Shown: positions 4,651 through 59,590, counted from the stretch's first letter. The stretch: DNA of 64,000 nt from an uncultured Ignavibacteria bacterium (GCA_964496505.1 CAZBZV010000015.1:754-64753), one strand, 5' to 3'. A program made the numbers and translations. Notes: generated by a model from the letters alone, not told the origin.

Positions 4651-5916
4651 ATGAAGGTGAAGCTAACATTGAGTAATACATCTGGAAAAAGGGCCGTTCT
4701 TTCACGGGAACGGCCCCTTGCAAATTCTGTCCTGAAGTTAATCTGGGAAAAAAGAAAGACTTCAAGGGCTGAAATTGCGCGTCTGACAGGATTATCCCGC
4801 TCGACGGTTTCGGAGATTATAGACAATCTTCTTGCCACCGGTTTGATAGCCGAAGTTGGAGCCGGTAAATCCAGCGGCGGAAGGCGTCCTATCGTTTTGG
4901 AATTTCAGGATGAGGCCCGCTGTATTATTGGCGTGGATCTGGGAGCAACCCACGTTTCGGTGGTCCTGACCGATCTGCGAGGCCATGTACTCTCATGGCA
5001 GGAGAAAAAGCATCCTGTAAGAACCGATCCCGAGGGTACCCGTGCGCTTATTATCAGTCTATGTGATCGATGTCTTAAAGAATGGGGCAATGGAAACAAA
5101 CGATTATTTAGTATCGGGGTTGCTGTTCCCAGCCCGGTGGATCCATTGAATCCAAGGCTGTTATCAGAGGTAGTTATCCCGGCCTGGCAGGGCGAAAGCG
5201 GTTTGGAGCAGATTCAAATCAAGTATGGCGTGCCGATTTATGTCGATAATGACGCAAATCTCGGCGCCCTCGCTGAACACTGGTGGGGAGCTGGAAGAGG
5301 CATTAACGATTTTATTTATATAAAAATCGCCCATGGCATCGGTGCCGGTTACATATTGAACGGAGACATATACCGCGGAGCGGGCGGTGTTGCTGGCGAA
5401 ATGGGGCATCTTCCCATAGATCCTAATGGAGAATTATGCGTTTGCGGTTTAAGGGGATGTTTGGCAACCCTTGTAGGAAAACCGGCAATCGCTGAGCGAA
5501 CCAAAAAACTATTGAAGAAATATCCCAAAAGTCAACTCAAGGCTGCAGATCTTACCCTGGATGCCATCGAAAAGGCCGCTCGCAATGGAGATCAATTGGC
5601 TCTGAGGATTGTAAGCGAAGTAGCTGAATACCTGGGAATCGCCATTTCAGGATGGTTTAATTTGATGAATCCAAATCTTGCAATATTGGGTGGGGGTTTT
5701 GCCGGGTTAGGAGAACTTCTTCTCGAGCCGTTACGATCCAAGGTGAGAAATAGTACTTTAGTAAGCAAAGCAGCGGTTGATATTAAAACCAGCGATCTCG
5801 GATCGCGGGCAATAGCAATTGGCGCCGCTACACTGGCTCTTGAGGCAATGTTTGCAGACCCTATCGAAGCACATGCACGGGCAAACGGGAGAATTAATGA
5901 CTCGGTACATCCATAG
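4651..5916 (+). CDS. ROK-family transcriptional repressor (XylR/NagC-like)
   Basis: N-terminal HTH SRAEIARLTGLSRSTVSEII, SSGGRRP, GVDLG, VDNDAN, GEMGH and CVCGLRGCL zinc motif. Confidence 0.95.
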   Translation: MKVKLTLSNTSGKRAVLSRERPLANSVLKLIWEKRKTSRAEIARLTGLSRSTVSEIIDNLLATGLIAEVGAGKSSGGRRPIVLEFQDEARCIIGVDLGATHVSVVLTDLRGHVLSWQEKKHPVRTDPEGTRALIISLCDRCLKEWGNGNKRLFSIGVAVPSPVDPLNPRLLSEVVIPAWQGESGLEQIQIKYGVPIYVDNDANLGALAEHWWGAGRGINDFIYIKIAHGIGAGYILNGDIYRGAGGVAGEMGHLPIDPNGELCVCGLRGCLATLVGKPAIAERTKKLLKKYPKSQLKAADLTLDAIEKAARNGDQLALRIVSEVAEYLGIAISGWFNLMNPNLAILGGGFAGLGELLLEPLRSKVRNSTLVSKAAVDIKTSDLGSRAIAIGAATLALEAMFADPIEAHARANGRINDSVHP

Positions 5917-6718
5917 ATTGAAAATCCTTGTCTTGCTTTTGGCGATATCATTAACAGTAAGTTGCGGCAATAATTCGGTTGAATCTGAGATTACATTGAA
6001 TTTAGTCTGGCAGGATGAATTCGAGGGGCCGGCCGGTCAATCGCCTGATCCGACCAAATGGGATTATGATATTGGAACCGACTGGGGTAATGTTCAGCTT
6101 GAATATGATACTGACAGACCGGAAAATGTCTCATTGGATGGAGAAGGAAATCTGGCTATCACTGCTCGCGAAGAATCATATATGGGGCAAGATTACACCT
6201 CAGCTCGGATTGTAACACGTGGTAAATTCGAACCTACCTATGGCAGAATTGAAGCCCGAATCAAACTTCCAACCGGGCAGGGAATCTGGCCCGCCTTTTG
6301 GATGCTCGGGAGCAACTTCAGTTCGGTTGGCTGGCCGCAATGCGGTGAAATAGACATAATGGAATACCGCGGCCAGGAACCCAGGATTATTCATGGCAGT
6401 CTGCACGGGCCGGGTTATTCCGGTGGGAATGCAATTACACGCAGATTTTATCTGGAAGATGGGCGTTTTGATAATGACTTCCATACTTTTGCTGTGGAAT
6501 GGGAAGCTGGTGTAATAAGGTGGTACATGAATGATATTGAATATCAGACCGTCTATCCATCGCTGGTCGATGGTGAATGGGTTTTCAACCATGCATTTTA
6601 TATCATTCTCAATGTTGCCGTTGGTGGAAATTATGTTGGTCCGCCAGATGAAACCACGGTTTTTCCACAGACAATGCTAATTGACTATGTCAGGGTTTAC
6701 AGTTGGGGAGGGAATTAA
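5897..6718 (+). CDS. GH16 endo-beta-1,3-glucanase (laminarinase-like), lipoprotein
   Basis: WPAFWML and catalytic EIDIME; lipobox LTVSC. Start moved to ATG 5897 (preceded by GGAG), overlapping the end of the ROK gene. Confidence 0.93.
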   Translation: MTRYIHRLKILVLLLAISLTVSCGNNSVESEITLNLVWQDEFEGPAGQSPDPTKWDYDIGTDWGNVQLEYDTDRPENVSLDGEGNLAITAREESYMGQDYTSARIVTRGKFEPTYGRIEARIKLPTGQGIWPAFWMLGSNFSSVGWPQCGEIDIMEYRGQEPRIIHGSLHGPGYSGGNAITRRFYLEDGRFDNDFHTFAVEWEAGVIRWYMNDIEYQTVYPSLVDGEWVFNHAFYIILNVAVGGNYVGPPDETTVFPQTMLIDYVRVYSWGGN

Positions 6719-6806
6719 CGCCCCAAGCTTGTGAATCCCTTTGTTTGGATCTGGAATGCAAAATTATATAGGCCTGCCTATATAGAAATTATAAGAAGAT
6801 CATATA

Positions 6807-8276
6807 ATGAATCCTTCAACAAATTACAAAACCGCACCGGAAGATCGAATATCATTTTCCCAGAGAATTATATACGGTCTGGGCGGTTTGATCAATAACC
6901 TTCTGGCGGCCGCCAGCGGCGGAATGATGATAGTCTTAAATCTTGGCCTTGGAATGAATCCTGCCCTGGTTGGCCTGCTTGGATCGCTTCCAAGATTGAC
7001 CGACGCCTTAACCGATCCGATCATGGGCTTTATTTCCGACAATACCGAATCTCGCTGGGGAAGAAGACGTCCATATATATTTGTAGGGGCGATAGCGGCT
7101 GGTGTTATCTTTGCTATATTGTGGCAGCTTCCAAGAGGACAGAGCGAAACATTTTACTTCGTGTATTTCCTGATCGGATCGATACTATTCTACATGGGTT
7201 ATACCGTATTTGCGACTCCCTGGGTAGCATTGGGGTATGAACTGACGGCTGATTACAATGAGCGTACAAGACTGATGGGTACCCAGAATTTTATCAGTCA
7301 GCTGGCATATGTTGTTTCGCCCTGGTTTCTATGGATAATGACTTATGAGAAGTTTTTCAAGGATCAGGTTGCCGGAGCCGCTGCATTGGCGATAATAATA
7401 GCCATCGTTACAATAGGTATCGGCATCCTCCCGGCAATATTTTTGAGAGAAAAGTACAAGAAAATTGCCCAATCAGAGATCGACAAAAAAGCGATAAAAG
7501 TAAGCGCTTCCAGAGCTCTGTGGAACAATCTTACAAAGTTCTTTAAGGGATTCGCGACCACGGTCAAATCGGGGCCCTTCTTAAAACTCTGTCTGGCTAC
7601 CTTTTTGGTTTTCAATGGCTTTATTTTGGTCTCTTCTTTCCAGTTTTATGTTATCATTTATTACGTCGCCGGAGGTGAACAAAATCTCGGGGCTCAATAT
7701 GCAGGATACGCCGGTACCATTGGAGCTGTTTCAACCTTTATAGTGATTATGATTGTAACATGGATCGGAACCAAAATCGGGAAGCGAAGAGCATTCCTCG
7801 TATCGACTGCAATGTCTATGCTGGGCTATGCCCTTAAATGGATATGCTATAATCCTGATCATCCCTGGTTGGTGATTGTGCCCGCACCGCTTCTGGCATT
7901 CAGTCTTGGGGGATTGTTTACCCTCATGCCATCGATGGTCGCTGATGTAGTTGATTATGATGAATTACAAACCCATCAGCGCCGCGAGGGAATGTTTGGA
8001 TCGATCTTCTGGTGGGTGGTAAAGCTGGGAATGTCGGCGGCTCTAGCAGGTGGAGGATTTCTTCTTAATGCCACCGGTTTTGACGTTGCACTCGAAGGCA
8101 ATCAGACCGCCAATACTATAACTCTTATGCGAATCTTTGATGCCGGGGTGCCTATCGTCACATCGGCCATCGCAATCTGGGCTGTGGCAACATTTCCCAT
8201 AACCGAACAGAAAGCCCGAGAGGTAAGAGAAGTGCTGGAAAAAAGGCGAGGTAAGCCTAATAGTGAAACGTCATAA
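6807..8276 (+). CDS. MFS glycoside-pentoside-hexuronide (GPH) sugar:cation symporter
   Basis: About 12 hydrophobic segments; DALTDPIMGFISD, RWGRRRPY, ELTADYNERT, ADVVDYDE..RREG motifs. Confidence 0.93.
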   Translation: MNPSTNYKTAPEDRISFSQRIIYGLGGLINNLLAAASGGMMIVLNLGLGMNPALVGLLGSLPRLTDALTDPIMGFISDNTESRWGRRRPYIFVGAIAAGVIFAILWQLPRGQSETFYFVYFLIGSILFYMGYTVFATPWVALGYELTADYNERTRLMGTQNFISQLAYVVSPWFLWIMTYEKFFKDQVAGAAALAIIIAIVTIGIGILPAIFLREKYKKIAQSEIDKKAIKVSASRALWNNLTKFFKGFATTVKSGPFLKLCLATFLVFNGFILVSSFQFYVIIYYVAGGEQNLGAQYAGYAGTIGAVSTFIVIMIVTWIGTKIGKRRAFLVSTAMSMLGYALKWICYNPDHPWLVIVPAPLLAFSLGGLFTLMPSMVADVVDYDELQTHQRREGMFGSIFWWVVKLGMSAALAGGGFLLNATGFDVALEGNQTANTITLMRIFDAGVPIVTSAIAIWAVATFPITEQKAREVREVLEKRRGKPNSETS

Positions 8277-47640: not shown

Positions 47641-48423
47641 ATGAGAAATAAGGCGATTTTTGTCATTACAATAATATTCATATCTGCATTATGTCTTGCC
47701 AATAATGAGGATGCCGATCCGGCAAACGCAAAAACCGGAGATATTATGGTGGTAGCTCGCGGCTGCACACCTCCGCCCTATGAAACCGGACTGAAGCTGA
47801 TCTTAAACAGGATGCCAGAAGGAGCTGAGCGTATAATTGTGACATCATACCCCAACACTTTGATTGACAACGAGGATTCAATGCAAAAGCTATGGCGTGA
47901 ATATATGCTTAAATTCCAATCTATGCTTAGGTCGGGAAGCATGCTCGATACCGCTAACGGAGTAGTAATTATAAGACCAAGTGTTTATTTTTATGATGAT
48001 TATCGCGTTGCTGTTGGAATAACTGATTCGCTTGGCCGTTATATCTTTTCGGACCTTCCGCCCGGTGAATATCAGTTGATTCTTGACGGCTCACGACCTT
48101 TCAATCCGGTTAAAGAATATGAACGTTCAAATAGACTCTTCGCGCAGAGAACTGATTTTCCTGATTTTAAAATCAACTACCCGCCCGACATTGAGGAAAG
48201 GCTCTATCAACAAGAGGGCAGCAAAGGACTATGGCCATTCGGCCAAACCCTCTGTCAAGATGGAATAATTGATAGCATAAGAGTTGCCCCGGATAGTATG
48301 TCTATTTCAAAAATCGCGACTCAATTCACAGATGGTTTTGAAGACTTTGGATATAGGATTAAAATCTGGAATAGTAAATTTAAAGCAAGGGACGGGCAAA
48401 ATGAAAGCAAAAACAATAATTAA
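47641..48423 (+). CDS. Hypothetical secreted protein with a prealbumin/carboxypeptidase-regulatory-like segment
   Basis: RBS GGAGG, signal peptide, TDSLGRYIFSDLPPGEYQL; overlaps the start of the S8 gene. Confidence 0.65.
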   Translation: MRNKAIFVITIIFISALCLANNEDADPANAKTGDIMVVARGCTPPPYETGLKLILNRMPEGAERIIVTSYPNTLIDNEDSMQKLWREYMLKFQSMLRSGSMLDTANGVVIIRPSVYFYDDYRVAVGITDSLGRYIFSDLPPGEYQLILDGSRPFNPVKEYERSNRLFAQRTDFPDFKINYPPDIEERLYQQEGSKGLWPFGQTLCQDGIIDSIRVAPDSMSISKIATQFTDGFEDFGYRIKIWNSKFKARDGQNESKNNN

Positions 48424-50665
48424 GAGGATGTCTTTTTTCTATATAGTTGTAGTTTTCATTCTTTTGGTTAATGAAAACTTGTCTGGAAAAATCGATCCCC
48501 TATTGCAGAGCTTAAAAGCACAACAGAAGGAAAGCATAAGAACGACATTGGGGCTTGATGGATTGGAATATGTTTCATCGCCTATACTGATTGCCAATCT
48601 TAAAAATATAATTGATATTTCCGAAGATAAGGGGGAATTAACCGTATATACGATTATTCAAACGGATGGTGAATTTGAAGAATTCAGTCATTTTGGAATT
48701 AGAACCAATACAAAGATAGGAAACTTTTATACTGCTGAATTAACAATGGATCAGATTGATTCATTGGCCGCACAAAAAGGCATTGTAAGAATAGATGCCA
48801 GTGTTAAATGTAAGTTGAATCTGGATACCAGTTTAACAACAATGAAAGTAGATGCTGCAATTGATACGTTCGGTTTAACGGGAAAAGGGGTAATTATTGG
48901 GGTTATAGATGCAGGTTTTGATATTTGGAATGCCGATTTTCAAAAGCAAAATGATACCACAACCAGGATATTGTATTATTTTGATGTGAATGACAATTCA
49001 GGACCATCTCCATTAAGCTATGGCACCGAGTTTAATAGCAGGCAAATAAATAACTTATCTTGTGGACATCTCGATTTTGATGGACATGGTACCGCGGTTG
49101 CCGGAATCGAATGTGGCAACGGAAAAAGGACAAAAAATGGACTTCCCCCTGGCACTTACAAAGGTGTAGCTCCTGAAGCCTCCATTATCATTTTTGATTT
49201 CGTTTATAAAGAGCACTTAAGTACCGGTAAGATATTGGATGGCGTTGGATATATAATGCAAAAAAGCCAATCTTTGAATATGCCTTGTGTAATCAATATA
49301 AGTTCTGGGTCATTTAAAGGTCCAAAGGATGAGACAAGCCCATTCGAAATGGCATTGTTTAATGCTGGTTTTAATACTGGTAGGGCTATAGTTGCAAGTG
49401 CTGGCAATCGCAATTATATATATCCGAAGCCCTTGTACAAAGGCCAAAAGTGGCATGCAAGCCGAAATAGTCAATCATATCCGAGTATTCAAGATACGGT
49501 TGAGATTTTTGTGGCAACAGACACCATGGCTCAACCCCAAGGTAGTGATGAGTATATTGCGATTCAAATATGGTACCCGGCTGGACAGAATTTTTACGTT
49601 GGATTGATTTCTCCATCCGGAGATTCATGCGGACATTGGGGACCTAACGATGGTAATGCTCCACCCGGACTGACGTGCCCTAAGCCATTTGGATTAATCG
49701 GTATACATAATGAAGATTATGATTTAATGCATCCTGATCCATATCCAGACACTTATGGTGAAATTACAATTGACTTGATGGATTGGTATATGGGTTATCC
49801 CCTTGAAAGGGGAACATGGAAAATAACAATGGATAGCGGAGTGGGAAAATGGGATACGTATATTTACTTCAGCAATACACACACACCTCAGAATTCGGGA
49901 GATTATTCTTATATTCCGGACTTCAATAACGATGGATGTGTTACTGAGCCGGGCAATGCTGAATGTGTTATCGCAGTAGGCGCCTATACCTCCAAAAATA
50001 GCTGGATTGATGCCGATTCTATCTTTATATACGATATAAATTTTACTCCTGGTGATACTAGTTTTTTTTCTTCGCGAGGGCCTACTCGGGATGGAAGGAA
50101 TAAGCCTGATATTTTGGCACCTGGTGCAATGATTGCATCATCTGTTTCTGATCACTACATAAATGGGCCTGTGGGTTATACAAAATATGATAGCACTCAT
50201 TTGGCGTATGATTCTTGTCATTATCATCGCTCAGGCACTAGCTTTGCCGCACCGCATATTGCAGGTTTAGTAGCATTGATGTTTCAGGTTGATTCCGAAT
50301 TGACATGTATTGATCTAATAGATTGTCTTCAAAGTACCGCGTCCGGAATAGGCCACGTTAATGCAGTTGAAGCGCTTCGATGCGTGGGAGCGGATTCATT
50401 CTGCCAGGGAGGATGCGGAGATGCAAATGGTGACGGGCCTGTGAATGTTTCAGATGCAGTCTGGGTAATCAATTATGTTTTTATCGGCGGACCTGAGCCT
50501 TTGCCAGTACTGGCATGTGGTGATGCGAACACAGATGGAGCCGTTAATGTATCTGATGCCGTATTTATAATTGAATATACTTTCCAGGGCGGCCCGGATC
50601 CGGGAGATTGTTCGCCAGGATCATGGACCGGCCAGGGCGGAAATTGTTGTCCATTTACTCGTTGA
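48401..50665 (+). CDS. S8 subtilase with inserted domain and C-terminal dockerin
   Basis: Catalytic triad VIDAG, GHGTAVAG, SGTSFAAPH; SAGN; FSSRGPTRDGRNKPDILAPG; dockerin CGDANGDGPVNVSDAV x2. Start moved to ATG 48401 to give a signal peptide. Confidence 0.9.
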   Translation: MKAKTIIKRMSFFYIVVVFILLVNENLSGKIDPLLQSLKAQQKESIRTTLGLDGLEYVSSPILIANLKNIIDISEDKGELTVYTIIQTDGEFEEFSHFGIRTNTKIGNFYTAELTMDQIDSLAAQKGIVRIDASVKCKLNLDTSLTTMKVDAAIDTFGLTGKGVIIGVIDAGFDIWNADFQKQNDTTTRILYYFDVNDNSGPSPLSYGTEFNSRQINNLSCGHLDFDGHGTAVAGIECGNGKRTKNGLPPGTYKGVAPEASIIIFDFVYKEHLSTGKILDGVGYIMQKSQSLNMPCVINISSGSFKGPKDETSPFEMALFNAGFNTGRAIVASAGNRNYIYPKPLYKGQKWHASRNSQSYPSIQDTVEIFVATDTMAQPQGSDEYIAIQIWYPAGQNFYVGLISPSGDSCGHWGPNDGNAPPGLTCPKPFGLIGIHNEDYDLMHPDPYPDTYGEITIDLMDWYMGYPLERGTWKITMDSGVGKWDTYIYFSNTHTPQNSGDYSYIPDFNNDGCVTEPGNAECVIAVGAYTSKNSWIDADSIFIYDINFTPGDTSFFSSRGPTRDGRNKPDILAPGAMIASSVSDHYINGPVGYTKYDSTHLAYDSCHYHRSGTSFAAPHIAGLVALMFQVDSELTCIDLIDCLQSTASGIGHVNAVEALRCVGADSFCQGGCGDANGDGPVNVSDAVWVINYVFIGGPEPLPVLACGDANTDGAVNVSDAVFIIEYTFQGGPDPGDCSPGSWTGQGGNCCPFTR

Positions 50666-50736: not shown

Positions 50737-53499
50737 CTACTTCCCGGCAGGTTCTTCCAAAACGCCCACGCCTTCGTGCTGGTCGGCGTTGAGATAGACA
50801 CGCAGGACTTTGCCGTCAGTGACCGCGGGGACATCGATGACATGCACACATTCTGAAAGATGCGCGTAGTCGGGAAGAATCTCCGGGAGAAGATTGGGAG
50901 AGTTGGTGAGGAAATCCTCGTTAAATTTTATGCCCGGATCGTCGGGATAAAGCGGCAGATATCTTATATTGGATTCCACCAGATCCTGGAAGAAATGCGT
51001 GCCGAACGACAGGTCGGGCACATAATTGCCCTTCTGGCGCGCGACCTCGATCAGCATGGCGGTGTTGTTGATATCGGAATAGGTAACATTGACACCCAGC
51101 TTGATATCGCCCCGGCTGCCCCATCGTCCCGGACCCATCAGGATAAATTTATGCTCCGGCAGGCGCTTGTTGAGCTTGTTGACCACCCGTCCCACCGCCA
51201 GAAGCTCGTTTAATTCTTTGATGTCAGCATAACCGGCCGGATCGACATAAACAATATGAGTGATCTCCGGCACCATGCCGTTGGAAATAAACCTGTGAGC
51301 CGAGAAGATAATATCATCGGGCGGGATATCATGCGGAATCTTGTCGCCGGTATCCTGCTCGACATAGCTCTGCGGGCGGCATTGCAGGAGGTAGAAATTT
51401 TTGCCGTCATGCGCGAACTCGAGATCAACCGGCCGATCCAGCTTAGTCTCCAAAAGCCGCATTAGCGTCCGCACTTGCGGTATAAACTTGCCGTCTGCTA
51501 CCAGGCTGTCAAAAGTTACAATCAGGTCATCATGCTCATAATCGATATTAAATGCTATGGGCTTTTTGATTTGGTCGTCTTTATGAATCGAGAGGATTTT
51601 ATTGATTCCGGGAATCTGATCACCGACCTCTTTCAGAAGCTCCCTGATATGCATAGTATAGAAGCTGTTCTCCTTCAGATTGATCACATCTACCTGGCTG
51701 GGTGAATAGCGAATCTGCTCGTCTATCGATGTATTTGCACGCAAATTCGGCTGTCCTGGCGCGATCAGTACCGGGTAATCATCAGAAAGCCTGTCGACCG
51801 CACGAGTCCCAAGGCCGGGTACCAGCCTCAGCAGCCCGTTTTCGCGCTTGATTCGGGGCGACCAGCGGAATTCGTTGCGGCTGAACGCCACGCCTGCAAA
51901 TGTTGGCAGGAAATAATCGCCTACACGATTGCCGACCACCTCCTGAATCATGATCGCCATCTCCTCATCAAAATCGATCAGGCCGTTATGAGTGCGGTAC
52001 TCGATCGGATCGGGCGAAAAGACCGAGGCATAAACCTCAGCGATAGCATCAAGCAAAGCCTCCAGCCTTTCACGCTTGCTGCCCTGATTGGCAAGAAAGA
52101 GGCTCTTGTATTTGCCGGAAAAAGCCATACCCACGCCGTCCTCGAGAAGGCTGGAGCTTCTCACGATCAACGGGCGCTCCTCGAAATCGTCAAGCGCCAC
52201 CGAAAGCCCCGCCACTATCTCCGGAGGGAAATGCGAATTTTTGAAGGTATGGACAATATGCGGGTATTCGAATCTGATCTGGTTAATATCTTTGTATTTC
52301 TGCTCCACCACCTCGGCGAAATTATTGTAATGCATGAAATGCAGGATCATGTCCGAGGTTATGTACCATGTGCGCGGGATTTTTATATCACCTAAAACGT
52401 CCGAATGCTCCGGAGATTTCCTGATAATCTGCGCCGCCAGCGTAAGTCCCGCCGCTTTGCCGCCGAGTTTACCATGACTTTCGCTGGAAAAGATGACATG
52501 CTCCAGGAGATCGTAAAAATCACTGATTTCGATAAAATTCTTGGCAATATTTATATAATTTAACTGGTTAGACAAAAACCGCCTGATAAGCGATACCAGA
52601 ACTCCTCGTCGACTGGGGGAATGCAGCTCCACACCATCTCCGATATGATGGTATCTCCGGATAGCATCAGCGACCTCGGAGATAGAGAGATTGCGGTTAA
52701 CCACCTGAATCAGGAAGTTAAGCTTGTCCTCATGGATCCAGTGCTCAATTTTGGACGATATCTCCTCATCCGTAAGATTTTCCGAGGCCAGTTTGAATAT
52801 TTTTTTTGAAAGCTCGTTGGAAATGGTGAATTTACGCACCTGATGCGGTCGGTTGGAGTCCTTTTCAATCTGATCCTCATCGCTTTTCCTGTCGGCCCCT
52901 GACGACCGACGCAGCTTTTCCGCATCGCTGAATCCGCTCCAGCAGAGGAAGTTCAGCATTTTAAGCGAGACTGTAAGAAAGAGATTTCTGTCGGTTTGAT
53001 ACAACAGGTCGAGTACTACCTGCCATTCGGCGATACCCTCACCGTCCTGGTCATCTTCTGCCGCCTGCCATTCACTGAACATGCCCTTGACCTGCTGATA
53101 CATCATAAAATGTCCCAGCCGGTCGGCAATAGTCCTGATCAGCTTGGTCTCTTCCTTCAGGAAAGGGCCGTGATCCGCCTGCGGCATCTCCTCGGTATAA
53201 AAAATGCTGAGCATGCCTACAGTCTTGTCCTGCACCCGGATTTCCGCATTCTGAACCCATCTGGTCTCCATAAAATCGGGAGTGGTATACACCTTCTCGT
53301 TTAAGGTCAGCTTGGCCTTGCAAATATCCGGATACTGCCATCCGGGCGGGATAGCATCGATAATACCCCAGCAGACATCATCCAGGTTCGTGTCAGGACG
53401 ATTAATAACCTCCTCTATGCGGTAGAGGCAGTTGAGCTCCTTGGCGCGCTCCTGTAGATCGAGGAGAAGTTTTTCTACCGGATCATGTTCGACGGACAT
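50737..53499 (-). CDS. PEP-synthase/PPDK nucleotide-binding-domain protein with N-terminal GAF-like region and no pyruvate-binding barrel
   Basis: LGGKAAGL, VRSSSLLEDG..FSGKY, MIQEVVG, GLGTRAV, DLEFA..LLQCRP; N-terminal LQERAKELNCLY..PPGWQYP..GPFLKEE; C-terminal GPGRWGS..SFGTHFF. Confidence 0.8.
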   Translation of the reverse strand: MSVEHDPVEKLLLDLQERAKELNCLYRIEEVINRPDTNLDDVCWGIIDAIPPGWQYPDICKAKLTLNEKVYTTPDFMETRWVQNAEIRVQDKTVGMLSIFYTEEMPQADHGPFLKEETKLIRTIADRLGHFMMYQQVKGMFSEWQAAEDDQDGEGIAEWQVVLDLLYQTDRNLFLTVSLKMLNFLCWSGFSDAEKLRRSSGADRKSDEDQIEKDSNRPHQVRKFTISNELSKKIFKLASENLTDEEISSKIEHWIHEDKLNFLIQVVNRNLSISEVADAIRRYHHIGDGVELHSPSRRGVLVSLIRRFLSNQLNYINIAKNFIEISDFYDLLEHVIFSSESHGKLGGKAAGLTLAAQIIRKSPEHSDVLGDIKIPRTWYITSDMILHFMHYNNFAEVVEQKYKDINQIRFEYPHIVHTFKNSHFPPEIVAGLSVALDDFEERPLIVRSSSLLEDGVGMAFSGKYKSLFLANQGSKRERLEALLDAIAEVYASVFSPDPIEYRTHNGLIDFDEEMAIMIQEVVGNRVGDYFLPTFAGVAFSRNEFRWSPRIKRENGLLRLVPGLGTRAVDRLSDDYPVLIAPGQPNLRANTSIDEQIRYSPSQVDVINLKENSFYTMHIRELLKEVGDQIPGINKILSIHKDDQIKKPIAFNIDYEHDDLIVTFDSLVADGKFIPQVRTLMRLLETKLDRPVDLEFAHDGKNFYLLQCRPQSYVEQDTGDKIPHDIPPDDIIFSAHRFISNGMVPEITHIVYVDPAGYADIKELNELLAVGRVVNKLNKRLPEHKFILMGPGRWGSRGDIKLGVNVTYSDINNTAMLIEVARQKGNYVPDLSFGTHFFQDLVESNIRYLPLYPDDPGIKFNEDFLTNSPNLLPEILPDYAHLSECVHVIDVPAVTDGKVLRVYLNADQHEGVGVLEEPAGK

Positions 53500-53571
53500 T
53501 TACATCACTCCAAAATAACAATATACCCGTTTTATTATACGAAGTCGATGGATTATTTTCCAGAAAAGCTT

Positions 53572-54870
53572 TCAGACCCAGCCCCGATCGCGGCAGGCCT
53601 GGGCCACCCCTCCAACAGCTATAATATAAGCCGCATCGCGCATATAAAGCTTATTTTTTTCTGCCAGCTCGATGACTTTGTAATAGGCTGAGGTCATTTT
53701 GACATCGAGCTTGCCCAGGACCTCATCCTTGGGCCAGAAATAATTGATATTGCCCTGAATCTGCTCAAAATAGCTGCAGATCGCACCCCCGGCATTGGCC
53801 AAAAGATCGGGCAGGACGAAAATCCCGCGTCCCTCGATTTTCTTATCGGCCTCGGGAGTGGTGGGGCCGTCAGCGCCCTCGGCAATAATCTTTACTTTAT
53901 CACTTATTTTATCGACATTTTCGTCAGTGATCTGATTCTCCAGCGCCGCCGGAATCAAAATATCCACATCCTGCTCGATCCAGGCCTCGCCCGGCAGGAC
54001 CTCATATCCCAGATCGCGTGCTCTTTCCCTGTCGATACCGCCGAATCGGTCGGTGATTCGTTTAAGCTCATTTAAGTTTATGCCGGATTCTTTACGGTAG
54101 GCATAGGAGGCCTGATCCTCCTGATCCCAGCAGGAAACGCAGATGGTAGTCCCGCCGATCTCATGATAGAGTTTGATGGCGTTACGGGCGACATTGCCGA
54201 ATCCCTGTACACTGGCGGTTGTGTTGGAGGGATTCAAGTTCATATCGTAGAGTACTTCACGGAGTGCATAGACAAGGCCGTATCCGGTCGATTCTTCCTT
54301 GCCCATCGAACCTGCCAAACGCACCGGTTTGCCGGCCGTTATTCCCGCTCTTCTTTCGCCTTCAATCGCCTCGTATTCATCCATCATCCAGATCATATGC
54401 TGGGGGCTGACCATAATATCGGGGGAGATCACATCACGTTTGGGTCCGATATCACGGGCAAGCTGCCGCACCCATTTACGGCAAATCTGCTCCTGCTCGG
54501 AAAGGCTGAGATTATGCGGATCGCAGATCACACCGCCGTTAGCGCCGCCCAATGGTATATCGGCTACGGCCGCCTTCCATGTGCTCCACATCGCTTGTGC
54601 ACGAGCGGTGTCGATTGAGACCTCGGGATGAAACCGCAGTCCGCCCTTGCAGGGTCCGAGAGCGTCGTTATGATGTACACGAAAGCCGCGAAATATCCTG
54701 AAATTGCCGTCATCCATCCTGACCGGAATCGAAAAATTATACTCTCTTAGAGGAGTTAGAAGAATTTCCCGAACGGATTTTTCAAGTTCAAGCTGTTCTG
54801 CCACTTTGCGGAATTGTGAGCGAGCCATTTCGAAGGGATTGAAGGCCGGCATAGCTATAGATTTCTCCAT
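53572..54870 (-). CDS. Glu/Leu/Phe/Val dehydrogenase homolog with degenerate active site
   Basis: GPCKGGLRFHP, VQGFGNV, DILIPAALE, LPDLLANAGG; but PLGGANGG replaces GG(A/G)KGG. Alternative start at 54852. Confidence 0.9.
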   Translation of the reverse strand: MEKSIAMPAFNPFEMARSQFRKVAEQLELEKSVREILLTPLREYNFSIPVRMDDGNFRIFRGFRVHHNDALGPCKGGLRFHPEVSIDTARAQAMWSTWKAAVADIPLGGANGGVICDPHNLSLSEQEQICRKWVRQLARDIGPKRDVISPDIMVSPQHMIWMMDEYEAIEGERRAGITAGKPVRLAGSMGKEESTGYGLVYALREVLYDMNLNPSNTTASVQGFGNVARNAIKLYHEIGGTTICVSCWDQEDQASYAYRKESGINLNELKRITDRFGGIDRERARDLGYEVLPGEAWIEQDVDILIPAALENQITDENVDKISDKVKIIAEGADGPTTPEADKKIEGRGIFVLPDLLANAGGAICSYFEQIQGNINYFWPKDEVLGKLDVKMTSAYYKVIELAEKNKLYMRDAAYIIAVGGVAQACRDRGWV

Positions 54871-54984
54871 TGACGGGTATAGTGTCTTAGTCCAGGCCGT
54901 TGACAGGCCCCGGATTTATTGGAATCGAATTTCTGCAGAAAAAGCCTGTTGAATCGATCGATTAAATATCTCAGCATCAGTCAA

Positions 54985-55013
54985 AATGTACTTCACAGGA
55001 TGAAAACTGTCAA
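54985..55013 (-). promoter_or_regulatory. Sigma70-type promoter of the GDH-like/dikinase-like operon
   Basis: Minus strand TTGACA-N17-TACATT. Confidence 0.7.
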
Positions 55014-55039
55014 GATGTTAATCGAAAGAAGGCGGCCGC

Positions 55040-55074
55040 AAAAATACAGGGCGCAAGTGGATGCGCCCTGCATT
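55040..55074 (-). terminator. Intrinsic terminator
   Basis: Minus strand AUGCAGGGCGCA-UCCACU-UGCGCCCUGUAU followed by UUUU. Confidence 0.7.
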
Positions 55075-55209
55075 ATAGGAACGTGAAAGTGCCGCTTAGA
55101 AGGCCTTAGCGGCGCTCGGAATTAATGTGGTTTTCGTTAGGAGAATATTTTGGCATTATAAGAAGATTATAATTATCTATTAACCATAGATTTAAGTGCC
55201 CATGATACG

Positions 55210-55244
55210 AGAAGCCCGCTCAATAAATTCAAGCGGGCTTTCTT
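55210..55244. terminator. Terminator downstream of the M28 peptidase gene
   Basis: AAGCCCGCT..AGCGGGCTT inverted repeat. Confidence 0.7.
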
Positions 55245-55265
55245 AATTATATATCTAACTATGAC

Positions 55266-58004
55266 TTAACAGTCCGGCTCGCCATCGCCGTTGGGATCGC
55301 CCGGCGTATTTCCGCCGATAAAGACAAAGTTTATAATCATCACGGCATCCGAGACATTCACAGAGCCATCGCAATTGGCATCACCCGAAGCCTCCTCGGG
55401 AATTGGCGGATCGCCGCCGATGAAGACATAGTTGATGATCAAAACCGCATCGCTGACATTAATATCGCCGTCGTTGTTGGCATCCCCGACAATATAAAGC
55501 GGGGCAACATTCAATGGCATCGGGGGAGATGTGTAATAAGGCGTATCATTTAACATCAATTCAATGTTAAAATCGGTAAGACCGGCATCAAGGGCAGTGA
55601 ATTGCATACTCCAGTTGCCCATCATTTCAACAGTGGCAATGGTAGGATCTCCCACTGAAACATCCATGGAATAATAATTCGTATCCGGCTGATAAATCTG
55701 CGCCTGATCGTCCATAAACCAAACCTCATACTCCGGCGAGACATCACCCTCGATCAATTCCAATGAGCCCAGAATAACGTCATCATCAACTGTAAGGATA
55801 ACACTGGTTGAATCATAAAGGTGCAGACCGAATACAGGTACCTCCTCGAAACACTGAATCTGCGTAACCTCAAAGGCATCAATCCCGGCCTCCACAATGC
55901 TCTGCGGTTCTCCATCATTGGCGGTGAAACGTATCTGCATATTATCGCTCAAAGTCACCCCGGCTGCGGCCAGGTCGAGATCGGTGATCTCGTAATGCGC
56001 CCAATCGAGGCCGTTGCTTTCGTCGTGAACAGCAATCGTAGTCCATGTCCCTGCGCCCCCGTTATTATTGATTTCCACCTGGAGTTTATCCACGCCGCCT
56101 TCGGTATTCGTCAGGAAAAGATAATAATCATAGGATATAGCCCCGGGCAGAGACATATCAAAGACAGGCGAGGTCAGTCTTACCGCGCCGTTATCGATAT
56201 CAGTATTACCGAACTGATTCTGGGTCAGGTAGCACATTCCGCTGCCGTCGGCATCCGAGGAAGGGTCATAATCCCAGCCGTCATCATCAACCGGCACACC
56301 TCTCTCCCAGTATCCGCTGGTTGCCCCCAGGTTTGATGCTACCCAGCCCTGATCCAGTTGGAAATTATCCTGCATGGAATAAGCCAGATTCGTTGCAGAA
56401 GCCGCTGTATGTGGAACATCGGTATCATAAAACCTGCCGTTCTCCTCTTCATCGGCGCCCACATAGAACTGCACCCGATTGCCGCATGCAGTGCCGGGGA
56501 TTGTTGCGGTATATATATTGGGAAGCGTCTCGGTCATTGCGGTGCTGTCGAACGCTCCGCCATCAATGGCATAAAAGAGCTTGCCTGAGCCGGGAACCGG
56601 AGTGCCGCTGTTAACGCCGTAAACCTGGACATTAAATGTTGTCGGCTGATCCGGGGTTAACTCCTCTGGAAGCCCACCGGGAAAATCAAAGGCCACATGG
56701 GGCTGGGCATAAGTCTGGCCGACCACATAAACAGTCGCCAGTGCCGCCTTGGTCATCTCGGTCATATATTCAAAATTCATGTAAGTCGTGCTGTCCTTGT
56801 AGCTGTGGTAGACAGTCGAGAAAATACCCTCATGCAGGAATGTCGCCTCGTAGCCGTTTTGTATGAAGGGATGATGATCGGAGCCTGAGAGTGATCCGGC
56901 GAAGCTGGAAGTTATCCCTACCAGAGAATCTGCCAGATCGGCAAACAAGTTGGTATAGGTCAGAATAGGCCCGTAGTACAGCTTACAGGTATTGGTATTC
57001 TCGTAATGCGCGATCATATCCATATTGAACATATAAATAATGCTGTCGCCATTGGCCGCGGCATTATCAGCATAATGATATGAGCCGTTTAATCCCTGTT
57101 CTTCCGAATCAAAAGCAATGAATATAAAGGTAACATCGGTCTGCTCATTCATTAGAATTCGCGCCAGCTCTATTGTGGCTGCAGTGCCGGAGCCATTGTC
57201 ATCTGCTGCAGGCGAGCCGCTGACCCCGTCAAAATGCCCTCCCACGACTATTTGTAGATCGGGTCGGACAGTTCCTTCCTTGACCGCGACGACATTGTAG
57301 CAGTTTCCGACATATGATGTGAATGGATCGAGGTAAACCGAATCATAGCCGAATTCGATAAATTTGGACTGGATCCAGTCGCGTGCGGCATAATTGGAAT
57401 CAGTTCCGGCAAGGCGATGGTAGAAAGCCTGAAGTCGGTATGTATAGGATTCCAGCGAATCCTGACTGACATTGGAGATTAATGTCATTAAATCACCCAC
57501 GCCGGTTATCATATCGCGGTCCAGTTTTTCCGCCTCCGGAAATACCACGGGTACCTCTCCCGGTCTCAGGCGCACAAGCTGCGGCCGCGGCTCCATCAGA
57601 TCAATCTGCTCGGAATCAACCCGATAAACACGCATTTCCCCCGATTCATAAACTATCTCGAATTTTTCAGCATTCTCCCTGTCCATTCGATTATCAAGAG
57701 CCAGTTCAACCTGGCTGATATCGGAGGCAAGAAAACGATAATCCAGACCGGATTCATCCAGGGCCTCGGCATTGCTCGGTTCAATCAGGGCAAGATAGCC
57801 GTCATGCAATGCCAGTACCGGCATTGCCGGGGAGGCTTTTAGTTTCAAAGCCTGCTCTTTTGAAAATACTGAAATTTTGTAAAGATCGCCCCGCAAGATT
57901 TGCTCTTCATTAAATGGGATATCCTCAGCAAATGAGGGATTTGCCAATAACAATCCAAAAAACAACGCTGCAATCAACCCAAAGCTTGTACCGGCCTTAA
58001 TCAT
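55266..58004 (-). CDS. M28-family aminopeptidase with accessory beta domains and C-terminal dockerin
   Basis: Signal peptide; GGHFD, ADDNGSG, SEEQGLNGS, NMDM, SDH, YH; dockerin GDANNDGDINVSDAVLIINYVF / GDANCDGSVNVSDAVMIINFVF. Confidence 0.9.
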   Translation of the reverse strand: MIKAGTSFGLIAALFFGLLLANPSFAEDIPFNEEQILRGDLYKISVFSKEQALKLKASPAMPVLALHDGYLALIEPSNAEALDESGLDYRFLASDISQVELALDNRMDRENAEKFEIVYESGEMRVYRVDSEQIDLMEPRPQLVRLRPGEVPVVFPEAEKLDRDMITGVGDLMTLISNVSQDSLESYTYRLQAFYHRLAGTDSNYAARDWIQSKFIEFGYDSVYLDPFTSYVGNCYNVVAVKEGTVRPDLQIVVGGHFDGVSGSPAADDNGSGTAATIELARILMNEQTDVTFIFIAFDSEEQGLNGSYHYADNAAANGDSIIYMFNMDMIAHYENTNTCKLYYGPILTYTNLFADLADSLVGITSSFAGSLSGSDHHPFIQNGYEATFLHEGIFSTVYHSYKDSTTYMNFEYMTEMTKAALATVYVVGQTYAQPHVAFDFPGGLPEELTPDQPTTFNVQVYGVNSGTPVPGSGKLFYAIDGGAFDSTAMTETLPNIYTATIPGTACGNRVQFYVGADEEENGRFYDTDVPHTAASATNLAYSMQDNFQLDQGWVASNLGATSGYWERGVPVDDDGWDYDPSSDADGSGMCYLTQNQFGNTDIDNGAVRLTSPVFDMSLPGAISYDYYLFLTNTEGGVDKLQVEINNNGGAGTWTTIAVHDESNGLDWAHYEITDLDLAAAGVTLSDNMQIRFTANDGEPQSIVEAGIDAFEVTQIQCFEEVPVFGLHLYDSTSVILTVDDDVILGSLELIEGDVSPEYEVWFMDDQAQIYQPDTNYYSMDVSVGDPTIATVEMMGNWSMQFTALDAGLTDFNIELMLNDTPYYTSPPMPLNVAPLYIVGDANNDGDINVSDAVLIINYVFIGGDPPIPEEASGDANCDGSVNVSDAVMIINFVFIGGNTPGDPNGDGEPDC

Positions 58005-58321: not shown

Positions 58322-59590
58322 ATGGAGCGTAATGAACTTTCCAGCAGATTCCTGGAAGTCAGAAAGAAGTCGGAGGAGCTTTGCGAACCGCTTGAAACCG
58401 AAGACTATGTAGTTCAGCCTGTTGATGATGTCAGCCCGCCCAAATGGCATATCGGGCACACGTCATGGTTCTTCGAACGCTTACTTCTACAGGAATACGA
58501 GCCGAATTTCAAGCTTTTTCACGACCAGTATCACTACATTTTCAACTCATATTATGAATCTCTCGGTGAAAGAGTAATGCGCACCCTGAGGGGTACGCTG
58601 TCACGTCCTACCGTAGCAGAAGTAATGGAATATCGCAAATCGGTAACCGAGCGTATGTTGAATCTGCTGGAAAAGGTTGATGATGAGAAATGGCCTGAAA
58701 TCGAAACGCTTACCACTCTTGGAATAAATCATGAACAGCAGCATCAAGAGCTTTTCCTGATGGATATCAAATATATCTATTCCGCCAATCCATTAAAGCC
58801 TGCCTATAATAAAGATTTTGAGGAAATTCCAGCGAGTAAACATAATGACAGAAGATATCTTCTTTTCAAAGGAGGACAACATCAGATCGGCGCTAACGGC
58901 TACGGTTTTGCCTATGATAACGAATATCCCCGGCATGATACATTGATACGCGATTTCGCGCTGGCCAAACATCCAGTCACCAACGGGGAATACCTGGAAT
59001 TTATGAATGACGGCGGATATGAGGATCATCGTCTCTGGCTATCCGACGGCTGGGATACAATCAATACTCAAAAATGGAAACACCCGTTGCACTGGGAGAA
59101 GACCAAAGATGGCTGGATGGTTATGACTCTCTCAGGATTCAAACCGGTAAATCCAGATGAACCCGTATCCCATGTCAGCTATTACGAGGCTTCGGCCTTT
59201 GCACGCTGGGCCGGGAAACGTTTGCCGTCGGAGGATGAATGGGAGTTTGCCGCAAGTCAGAAAGGCAATTCGGTAGAAGAGGGCAATTTCATGGATAACA
59301 GAATTTATCATCCCACGGGCAACATCCTGCCTCAGGATGAGGACAGGCTCAATTCCATGATGGGCGACCTGTGGGAATGGACAATGAGCGCATATCTGCC
59401 CTATCCCGGATACGAGCAGGCTTTTGGCGCTCTGGGTGAATATAACGGTAAATTCATGAGTAATCAGATGGTGCTCAGGGGCGGATGCTGCGCGACTCCG
59501 CGCGACCATATCCGTCCAACATACAGAAATTTCTTTCAATGTGATAAACGCTGGCAGTTCAGTGGAATAAGACTGGCCGAGGATGCCTGA
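58322..59590 (+). CDS. egtB: Ergothioneine biosynthesis sulfoxide synthase EgtB
   Basis: DinB-like SPPKWHIGHTSWFFE, FNSYY, HEQQHQE; FGE-sulfatase-like domain RLPSEDEWE, GEYNGKFM, YRNFF. Confidence 0.93.
   Translation: MERNELSSRFLEVRKKSEELCEPLETEDYVVQPVDDVSPPKWHIGHTSWFFERLLLQEYEPNFKLFHDQYHYIFNSYYESLGERVMRTLRGTLSRPTVAEVMEYRKSVTERMLNLLEKVDDEKWPEIETLTTLGINHEQQHQELFLMDIKYIYSANPLKPAYNKDFEEIPASKHNDRRYLLFKGGQHQIGANGYGFAYDNEYPRHDTLIRDFALAKHPVTNGEYLEFMNDGGYEDHRLWLSDGWDTINTQKWKHPLHWEKTKDGWMVMTLSGFKPVNPDEPVSHVSYYEASAFARWAGKRLPSEDEWEFAASQKGNSVEEGNFMDNRIYHPTGNILPQDEDRLNSMMGDLWEWTMSAYLPYPGYEQAFGALGEYNGKFMSNQMVLRGGCCATPRDHIRPTYRNFFQCDKRWQFSGIRLAEDA

Follow-up and report, generated by a model that had tools for sequence, protein, structure and literature searches.

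What can a glutamate dehydrogenase (GDH) do once it has lost the residue that makes it an enzyme? The lysine of the PxGGxKGG motif is catalytic in GDH, and a gene pair of an uncultured Ignavibacteria bacterium poses this question because the first of its two genes encodes a GDH homologue with asparagine in that position. The pair lies in a 64,000-nucleotide (nt) stretch of DNA (GCA_964496505.1, CAZBZV010000015.1:754-64753), the whole of which we call the window. Both open reading frames (ORFs) are intact and co-oriented, with the gene for the GDH paralogue in first place and that for a 920-amino-acid (aa) dikinase-like protein in second; the spacing of 72 nt between them is as the original prediction gave it. 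That prediction regarded the pair as a stand-alone novel module. What we find instead is a cut-down second copy of a three-gene cassette that is widespread; in this copy the two remaining genes have diverged together, and it probably acts in control rather than in catalysis. The features on which this analysis is built are the following.

53572-54870, minus strand: GDH paralogue without the catalytic Lys, ORF of 432 aa
54538-54540, minus strand: codon AAC of Asn111, replacing the catalytic Lys of PxGGxKGG, by direct reading of PLGGANGG
53500-53571, minus strand: intergenic gap of 72 nt between the GDH paralogue and the 920-aa gene
50737-53499, minus strand: ORF of the 920-aa sensor dikinase-like protein, long-type PPDK_N

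An alternative in-frame ATG at 54852 would shorten the GDH paralogue to 426 aa, which is the length of an identical protein (P0001).

The GDH paralogue lacks the catalytic lysine

The paralogue belongs to the ELFV superfamily, as its Pfam matches to ELFV_dehydrog_N (PF02812, 1.4e-48) and ELFV_dehydrog (PF00208, 5e-61) show, and it is related to archaeal and bacterial hexameric GDHs of known structure with up to 340 bits (Thermococcus GDH, 1euz). It nevertheless stays under the cut-off of all five GDH equivalog models of NCBIfam, the best of which, NF040817 (GdhA_Arch), gives 393 bits versus 750. The column of the catalytic position is occupied by Lys in all 110 Lys-bearing relatives, and by this residue the paralogue does not qualify as a competent GDH.

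The exchange of the catalytic Lys for Asn, the further motif changes and the intact Rossmann motif, all of which had been listed in the original prediction, proved to be real when read against these 110 relatives. DVPAPDVMT is changed to DVISPDIMV and EGAN to EGAD (N334D), and in the Lys-less clade that includes the window ITGKPVGmGGSLGRTEATG is changed to ITAGKPVRLAGSMGKEESTG; Broken down by the substrate and cofactor motifs (KGG, TWK, PAPD with its Asp, TGKP, GRxEATG, GFGNV, EGAN and NAGGV..S), the paralogue has PAP replaced by ISP, T by A, R by K, EGAN by EGAD and GGVT by GGAI. Retained are K75, K99, D151, the Rossmann motif GFGNVA and S366. Ten columns that are at least 95% conserved in the Lys-bearing rows are changed in the Lys-less clade (V89A, L92Q, V103A, K111N/T, V152I, T154V/A, N334D, F356L, V363A and T364I/V), and every one of them lies within or beside MWMTWK, GGxKGG, DVPAPDVMT, EGAN or NAGGVTCS, motifs that we take to provide substrate and cofactor contacts. 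Judged from these alignments, the pocket of the Lys-less GDH has been remodelled and not randomly degraded.

The lysine-less state is conserved in a clade

Among the 120 best homologues of the paralogue ten are without the Lys, eight of them with Asn and two with Thr. A FastTree phylogeny of the GDHs was computed from 131 rows, some of which represent the same sequence in two collections (L005 = L038, L006 = L039). In this tree 17 Lys-less rows including that of the window (15 Asn, two Thr) form one clade with a support of 100, which spans sequences down to about 67% identity. Since pairwise ratios of nonsynonymous to synonymous substitution rates (dN/dS) amount to 0.05-0.09 within this clade as compared to 0.017-0.037 for the canonical GDH paralogue in the same genome pairs, the Lys-less gene is by this measure under strong, somewhat relaxed, purifying selection. 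The corresponding values of the 920-aa partner are 0.026-0.046.

The AAC codon is covered by contigs of two sequencing runs (X1 and X2) from two studies, and no variant is listed there. A degenerate DNA pattern for PLGGxNGGVxCDPH was run on 285 genomes of the phylum and was present in four, namely the genome of the window and three of the four other genomes of the same genus; it was missing from the remaining same-genus genome, which is 98% complete, and from all 280 remaining genomes of the phylum. An error of sequencing or assembly, or incipient decay of the gene, would have to account for no more than one codon, but the Lys loss shared by 17 related sequences from several sources, the low dN/dS, the intact reading frames, the concordance of the two studies at the codon and the Asn motif in the genomes of the genus make this exceedingly improbable, and we dismiss sequencing error and pseudogene alike.

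The locus is a reduced duplicate of a three-gene cassette

The full cassette consists of a Lys-bearing GDH, a short PPDK_N protein and a long protein composed of a GAF-like region, PPDK_N, a His-bearing domain and a nucleotidyltransferase (NTase), and it is widespread. When the 99 GDH rows with readable flanks were inspected, a dikinase-like gene was found downstream in 80. The family of long proteins is large (7929 of 7999 scored candidates at E <= 0.001), and its members usually comprise 1060-1068 aa and include the NTase domain NTP_transf_2. Thirty genome loci were found with the 920-aa protein: a GDH of the same subfamily lies directly upstream in 21, seven are cut at a contig end and two have room upstream but no GDH.

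The genome of the window has four ELFV-family genes, and thus the Lys-bearing gdh paralogues that were sought besides the window copy do exist, on contigs C4, C23 and C29. The C4 GDH is 70% identical to the window copy and has PLGGAKGG together with all canonical motifs. It heads a complete cassette, in which it is followed by a 584-aa PPDK_N protein and then by a 1065-aa long protein with NTP_transf_2 at residues 958-1023; this long protein is 64% identical to the 920-aa protein. A gene for a Metallophos phosphoesterase (L035:8810-9670, minus strand) converges on the canonical long gene of C4 and overlaps its end by 8 nt, and a counterpart is not found beside the reduced copy of the window.

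The GDH on C23 is an E. coli-type GdhA, and a 992-aa protein with a receiver domain and PPDK_N is encoded downstream of it (locus L036, 8213-9571 for GdhA and 4912-7890 for the receiver-type protein, both on the minus strand). Because this GdhA precedes a protein of the dikinase-like family, a second, unrelated type of GDH is also coupled to that family; the 992-aa protein carries the same His-bearing C-terminal domain as the 920-aa protein. The transhydrogenase genes PntA and PntB adjoin this locus. The fourth ELFV enzyme, on C29, has kept its Lys (PFGGAKGA). Two relatives (G002 and G003) share this set of four GDH paralogues, and a third (G001, 83% complete) has the Lys-less copy and the fourth enzyme only.

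Compared with the cassette, the window locus has no short PPDK_N gene, the two ORFs being separated by the 72-nt gap only, and no NTP_transf_2, as the long protein stops at residue 920. The closest relatives of the 920-aa protein (67-91% identity) have lengths of 918-924 aa and are likewise without NTP_transf_2. In every member of the Lys-less clade with readable flanks (the window, L005 = L038, L006 = L039 and L040; L034 is cut) the short gene is missing and the long partner has no nucleotidyltransferase. These NTase-less partners form one clade with a support of 99 both in FastTree (72 rows) and in IQ-TREE quick (34 rows), and this clade is sister to the C4-type long proteins with nucleotidyltransferase (support 97-98). 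The 920-aa protein is an orthologue of the long protein of the cassette and occupies the position directly after a GDH of the same subfamily. The coupling of the GDH homologue to its neighbour that had been proposed for this locus is borne out at the level of evolution by matching clades in both genes. The simplest history that these trees and gene contents suggest is a duplication of the cassette that took place in an ancestor of this lineage, then the loss of the Lys, of the short gene and of the nucleotidyltransferase, with the two remaining genes co-diverging.

Long proteins without the NTase occur also beside GDHs that have kept the Lys. At two metagenome loci (L085:3510-6254 and L109:3212-5953) such a protein is located about 700 nt upstream of a Lys-bearing GDH and not downstream of it, and at three loci (L061, L065 and L090) the partner of a Lys-bearing GDH is a long protein without NTase, the short gene being absent. 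Since the Lys is kept in all five, loss of the nucleotidyltransferase is not strictly tied to loss of the Lys.

Novel in this study are the findings that one genome has both a reduced form of two genes and the full cassette, that these two genes have co-diverged and that Lys-less lineages share substitutions in the pocket. A full-text search of the literature outside subscription journals yielded no paper that deals with the cassette of GDH, PPDK_N and nucleotidyltransferase or with Lys-less GDHs that belong to it.

Lysine-less GDHs in other operon lineages

Four more Lys-less rows are located inside standard three-gene cassettes (L024 and L025, both with Met, and L026 and L107, both with Asn). 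On the GDH sequences at least three Lys changes are needed in the FastTree and at least two in the IQ-TREE quick phylogeny, and by an approximately unbiased (AU) test one common origin of all 19 distinct Lys-less rows is not rejected (p-AU 0.411, delta lnL 7.2). In the partner-gene tree, the log-likelihood falls by 250 units when the partners of all Lys-less GDHs are forced into one group (p-AU 1.8e-97); the group of partners was defined by the GDH residue, although a FastTree of the partner proteins had been seen before the group was named. Because the AU test on the GDH sequences does not reject one origin, it is the partner-gene tree on which support for independent loss rests. This tree rejects the joint grouping and the GDH tree does not, which leaves two histories: repeated loss of the Lys, or transfer of a Lys-less gene from one operon to another.

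Lys-less GDH operons are present in at least three separate operon lineages, and they share substitutions at two sites of the pocket. Ile152 is found in all 21 Lys-less rows but in only 2 of the 110 Lys-bearing rows, and Thr364 is replaced in 20 of the 21 but in none of the 110. Because at least three lineages share these two substitutions, the alignments suggest that the non-catalytic state of the GDH is a recurrent, selected outcome. An independent-contrast sign test of the convergent sites has two to three independent pairs at its disposal, so that the 0.05 level is unreachable.

Domains of the 920-aa partner protein

The partner was analysed by Pfam and by structural models obtained with AlphaFold2 (AF2), and three domains and the codon of a conserved histidine were located.

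53050-53499, minus strand: small N-terminal alpha/beta domain, residues 1-150, with the order H-H-E-E-E-E-H in the AF2 model
51334-52470, minus strand: PPDK_N ATP-grasp domain, residues 344-722, from Pfam
50740-51336, minus strand: C-terminal His-bearing domain, residues 722-920, with GPGRWGS at 789-795 and SFGTHFFQDLVE at 831-842
50995-50997, minus strand: codon of His835, within SFGTHFFQDLVE

PPDK_N (PF01326) is the only Pfam family found in the protein (E 2e-58, profile positions 3-321 of 328). No PEP-utilizers domain and no PEP-utilizers_C barrel was matched by Pfam in the whole protein, which ends 78 residues past the His motif and has no acceptor-binding domain. The residues K348, R447, D692, E694, Q706 and R708, which we assume to serve in binding of nucleotide and Mg, do not vary among the 61 long proteins aligned. 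An intact PPDK-type ATP-grasp domain and the lack of a pyruvate-binding barrel, both part of the original prediction, are therefore well founded. The AF2 model of the whole protein (mean predicted local distance difference test score, pLDDT, 80.3) is divided into four regions: the alpha/beta domain of residues 1-150, a helical region to about residue 335, the ATP-grasp domain and a C-terminal domain of about 200 residues. Foldseek matched the ATP-grasp region alone, to rifampin phosphotransferase (RPH), PEP synthase, HpeI and PPDK; the best match was RPH (5hv3, E 9.6e-15), and the fold matches range to 1e-6. The isolated ATP-binding domain 5hv6 superimposes on the model with a target-normalised TM score of 0.70-0.73. 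An ordinary PEP synthase can be ruled out (57.7 bits vs a cut-off of 739.75, and no barrel), and the protein is far under every equivalog cut-off of NCBIfam.

The description of the N-terminus as GAF-like is supported by the order of secondary structure elements in the model and by look-alikes found with a language model, which include GAF clusters with scores of 0.86-0.89; it is not supported by Pfam, which at E up to 10 finds no family in the N-terminal 335 residues, nor in the C-terminal 199 residues.

The C-terminal domain contains the predicted His motif. SFGTHFFQDLVE is identical in all 61 aligned long proteins, while a PEP-utilizers His domain is not recognisable by sequence. The domain is common to the long, short and receiver-type paralogues, with GRWGS present and the His kept in at least 90% of 88 proteins. 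Folded alone, it is modelled with confidence (AF2 pLDDT 92.8, predicted TM score 0.91). A Foldseek search of this model against the PDB gave nothing at E <= 0.001, the best matches being chaperonin chains with E 0.045-0.19. In an exhaustive structural scan (VIA) seven chains reached Z >= 5 and none Z >= 8, and no fold was assigned to the domain. Domains that carry a phospho-His were matched with Z 4.7-5.2, among them RPH 757-867 (5.2), the PPDK carrier domain 2fm4, maize PPDK 387-518 and Enzyme I, and the alignments to PPDK carrier domains had Z values of 5.1 and 4.8; the C-terminal domain of a Bacillus pyruvate kinase also falls into this group. The models are compatible with a strongly diverged phospho-His swivel domain, and the reading of the conserved sequence as a His motif is reasonable but unproven.

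Predicted binding of the two proteins

Formation of a complex, one of the expectations raised for the pair, was addressed by prediction. Residues 355-920 of the partner and the GDH paralogue were submitted, both as alignments, in three runs and together with three controls. The score was 0.51 (runs 0.43, 0.51 and 0.51), the best of the three controls reached 0.00, and the result is graded as weak support. The mark applied is passed by 116 of 157 solved complexes and by 2 of 215 mismatched pairs, and passes that score at or below 0.60 comprise 18 of the 157 solved complexes and both mismatched pairs. The runs agree in at least 63% of the contacts, and the partner is modelled with a pLDDT of at least 88; no interface was reported. 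The prediction thus lends weak support to binding of the GDH paralogue to the 920-aa protein and adds a small increment to what the genetic linkage suggests.

Transcription signals and neighbouring genes

Promoter-like elements and hairpins are located at the following positions.

54985-55013, minus strand: promoter-like element (TTGACA-17-TACATT) upstream of the gene for the GDH paralogue, consensus matched at 10 of 12 positions
53534-53562, minus strand: promoter-like TGGAAA-17-TATAAT in the 72-nt gap, 10 of 12 consensus matches
55091-55113 and 55047-55070 (region 55040-55113), minus strand: two conserved hairpins upstream of the GDH promoter, from an alignment

The two hexamers upstream of the GDH paralogue are invariant in four of four aligned relatives, with the synonymous divergence of the two genes near saturation. 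The proposal of a single promoter holds in so far as this element is conserved, but the gap contains a second conserved one: TGGAAA-17-TATAAT recurs in the gaps of L005/L038, L006/L039 and L034, and GGAG precedes the ATG of the second gene. No terminator-like site was reported in the gap. The 920-aa gene may, by the conservation of this element, also have a promoter of its own.

The first of the hairpins (55113-55091) has paired substitutions in its stem; the second (55070-55047) is followed by a run of T and preceded by the invariant TTTCACGTTCCTATAAT. The RNA of 54871-55160 (290 nt) folds with a z value of -3.64, and Rfam gave no family for 54800-55320, the only match being one at chance level to IS128 (17 bits vs a gathering score of 80). 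The hairpins could represent a terminator of the upstream peptidase gene (in the case of the second hairpin), a small RNA or a regulatory leader.

The gene pair is flanked by peptidase genes (subtilase S8 and M28, at 48284-50665 on the plus strand and 55266-58004 on the minus strand). Both encode large proteins of the secreted type, each with a terminal Dockerin_1 domain, which in a genome of the Zixibacteria type is a hint at a proteolytic assembly on the cell surface that would supply amino acids. Two genes off, at 58322-59590 on the plus strand, a protein with DinB_2 and FGE-sulfatase domains is encoded (EgtB/OvoA-like sulfoxide-synthase architecture); it has no evident link to the gene pair.

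Functional interpretation

Our preferred interpretation, which we hold tentatively and at a little less than an even chance, is that the GDH paralogue is non-catalytic, binds a ligand and has as its partner a regulatory dikinase that is phosphorylated on His. We prefer it because a conserved Lys-less protein with changes focused on the pocket is combined with a co-diverging partner that has an ATP-grasp domain and an invariant His, because paralogous partners have sensor-type N-termini, and because the genome provides three other Lys-bearing enzymes of the family. The original prediction of a ligand-sensing pseudoenzyme coupled to a His dikinase thus retains its conserved Lys-less paralogue, the Lys-bearing paralogues and the coupling; phosphorylation, sensing and the acceptor are parts of it that we put forward conditionally.

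In this lineage one GDH copy has lost the catalytic Lys and undergone remodelling of its pocket while strong purifying selection persisted. In the mechanism we propose, the product is presumably inactive as a dehydrogenase and would function as a non-catalytic, ligand-binding subunit, which has probably retained the binding of NAD(P)(H) and of a dicarboxylate and which would work physically with the 920-aa partner. The latter would, most likely, autophosphorylate on His835 from ATP and then hand the phosphoryl group on, and the protein with the GDH fold would be the gate or the acceptor of this transfer. The presumed regulatory output would tune the glutamate/2-oxoglutarate node that the three Lys-bearing enzymes of the GDH family serve.

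By analogy, a precedent exists for each half of such a pair. For the dikinase half it is VadK (Rv1127c) of Mycobacterium tuberculosis, which is described as a truncated PPDK with the role of a regulatory His kinase; in the presence of ATP/Mg it phosphorylates itself on His422, and it binds metabolic enzymes, including those of the methylcitrate cycle (PMC13400623). According to this description VadK, too, has a PPDK_N-type ATP-binding domain followed by a His-bearing domain and is without the PEP/pyruvate barrel. Unlike VadK, the 920-aa protein has in addition an N-terminus of the sensor type and a helical region; its His domain lacks a PEP-utilizers match and has GTHFF instead of the usual motif, and its genetic partner has a GDH fold. 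RPH, PEP synthase and PPDK (5hv1/5hv3, 2ols and 1kbl) provide the best fold matches of the ATP-grasp domain (E 9.6e-15 to 1e-6); in contrast to them, the 920-aa protein is without an acceptor-binding domain, be it a RIF-binding domain or PEP-utilizers_C. For the dead dehydrogenase the precedents are GdhA of Thermus thermophilus, to which we return below, and ADLP of the same species. ADLP is described as an alanine-dehydrogenase-like pseudoenzyme in which the catalytic Lys is replaced and binding of NAD(H) is kept, and which regulates an unrelated enzyme, a CoA transferase, by direct binding (bioRxiv 10.1101/2025.10.31.685773). So described, it is a working precedent for a dead dehydrogenase that senses a cofactor and acts as partner to another enzyme. 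ADLP has the fold of the AlaDH family and not of ELFV, and its partner is a different one; we imply no kinship with the GDH paralogue.

Several observations weigh against the preferred interpretation. The Lys is kept in 88 of the 99 GDH rows with readable flanks, and a dead GDH is for this reason not required for the function of the cassette. N334D in EGAN and the other changes of the pocket may, from their positions, impair binding of cofactor or substrate as well, and the Lys-less GDH fold could still catalyse something. The score of the predicted complex falls into a range where a pass is wrong more often than right, except when binding had been likely from the outset. The conserved element in the gap suggests that co-transcription of the two genes may not be strict. 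Finally, the C-terminal domain of the partner has no TSH motif and no match to PEP-utilizers (PF00391) at E up to 10, and its structural matches to phospho-His domains (Z of about 5) are tied with those to DRTGG, cyclase-type hydrolases, LeuD and the apical domains of chaperonins; several of these folds belong to the 'swivelling beta/beta/alpha' class.

The remodelled pocket could also belong to a neofunctionalised pair of enzymes, an alternative we consider possible but rather unlikely. The pocket would take a different substrate, and the GDH-fold protein would contribute to a split dikinase the module that binds the acceptor or a second catalytic module; the pair would then perform a metabolic step, the phosphorylation or the conversion of an amino or oxo acid, and would not be a regulator. 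That the changes are concentrated in the pocket and conserved, and not scattered, is in line with this, and the frequencies of Ile152 and of replaced Thr364 given above suggest a directed change of the pocket, even if two to three phylogenetically independent contrasts put significance of the convergence out of reach. PPDK-type enzymes need an acceptor-binding module, which the 920-aa protein does not have, and two-component dikinases of small molecules do exist, HpeI (9goj) being among the fold matches. However, signalling is what the sensor-type domain at the N-terminus and the C23 paralogue with its receiver domain point to, and we know of no ELFV-family reaction that proceeds without the catalytic Lys.

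Less probable still is a subunit of the Thermus type, which is marked by a hetero-oligomer with the catalytic paralogue and a response to Leu as effector. Here the Lys-less paralogue would assemble into hetero-hexamers with the C4 GDH and modulate it allosterically, the dikinase-like gene being inherited context with a separate role. The model for this is the GdhA/GdhB GDH of Thermus thermophilus, of which GdhA is described as the inactive regulatory subunit in a hetero-hexamer (PMC9570180; bioRxiv 10.1101/2025.10.31.685773). By this description GdhA (PDB 3aoe) resembles the window paralogue in being a protein with a GDH fold that selection has kept beside a catalytic GDH, and both chains of 3aoe are sequence relatives of the paralogue (E 1.9e-87 and 1.1e-58). 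The identity of 70% to the C4 GDH and the confinement of the changes to the active-site region mean that oligomer surfaces are probably kept, and G002 and G003 likewise carry both GDH genes. In contrast to Thermus GdhA, the window paralogue is not located beside a catalytic sister but is paired, and co-diverges, with a dikinase-like protein. Its gene and that of the C4 GDH are on different contigs, whereas the gdhA and gdhB genes of Thermus are reportedly adjacent. The co-divergence of the Lys-less GDH and the NTase-less partner as a pair speaks against a separate role of the latter. In addition, one genome (G005) has a Lys-less GDH in its cassette and, instead of a Lys-bearing GDH of the same subfamily, just two enzymes of the E. 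coli type with about 30% identity.

Meaning for the control of glutamate metabolism

GDH is positioned where the metabolism of carbon joins that of nitrogen, and little is known about its control in bacteria outside a few model organisms. Sensor-equipped, ATP-using and His-bearing enzymes are encoded beside gdh in many uncultivated lineages, and they point to a control or partner system that has not been studied. The preferred interpretation, a non-catalytic GDH paralogue with a regulatory dikinase, would make the gene pair of the window a natural minimal version of two proteins, which separates a non-catalytic from the enzymatic role of the GDH fold and offers a simple pair for experiments.

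We can also imagine, though with low confidence, that the GDH fold is the specificity or acceptor module of a new, split His-dependent phosphotransfer system. The fold would read glutamate, 2-oxoglutarate or NAD(P)H, a state that would be written as a phosphorylation by the dikinase-like protein. If this were true, the window would represent the minimal two-protein form of the system, which can dispense with GDH catalysis and has given up the short paralogue as well as the output through the nucleotidyltransferase, and split phosphotransfer would constitute a route of carbon/nitrogen signalling that is independent of PII, GlnD and GlnE.

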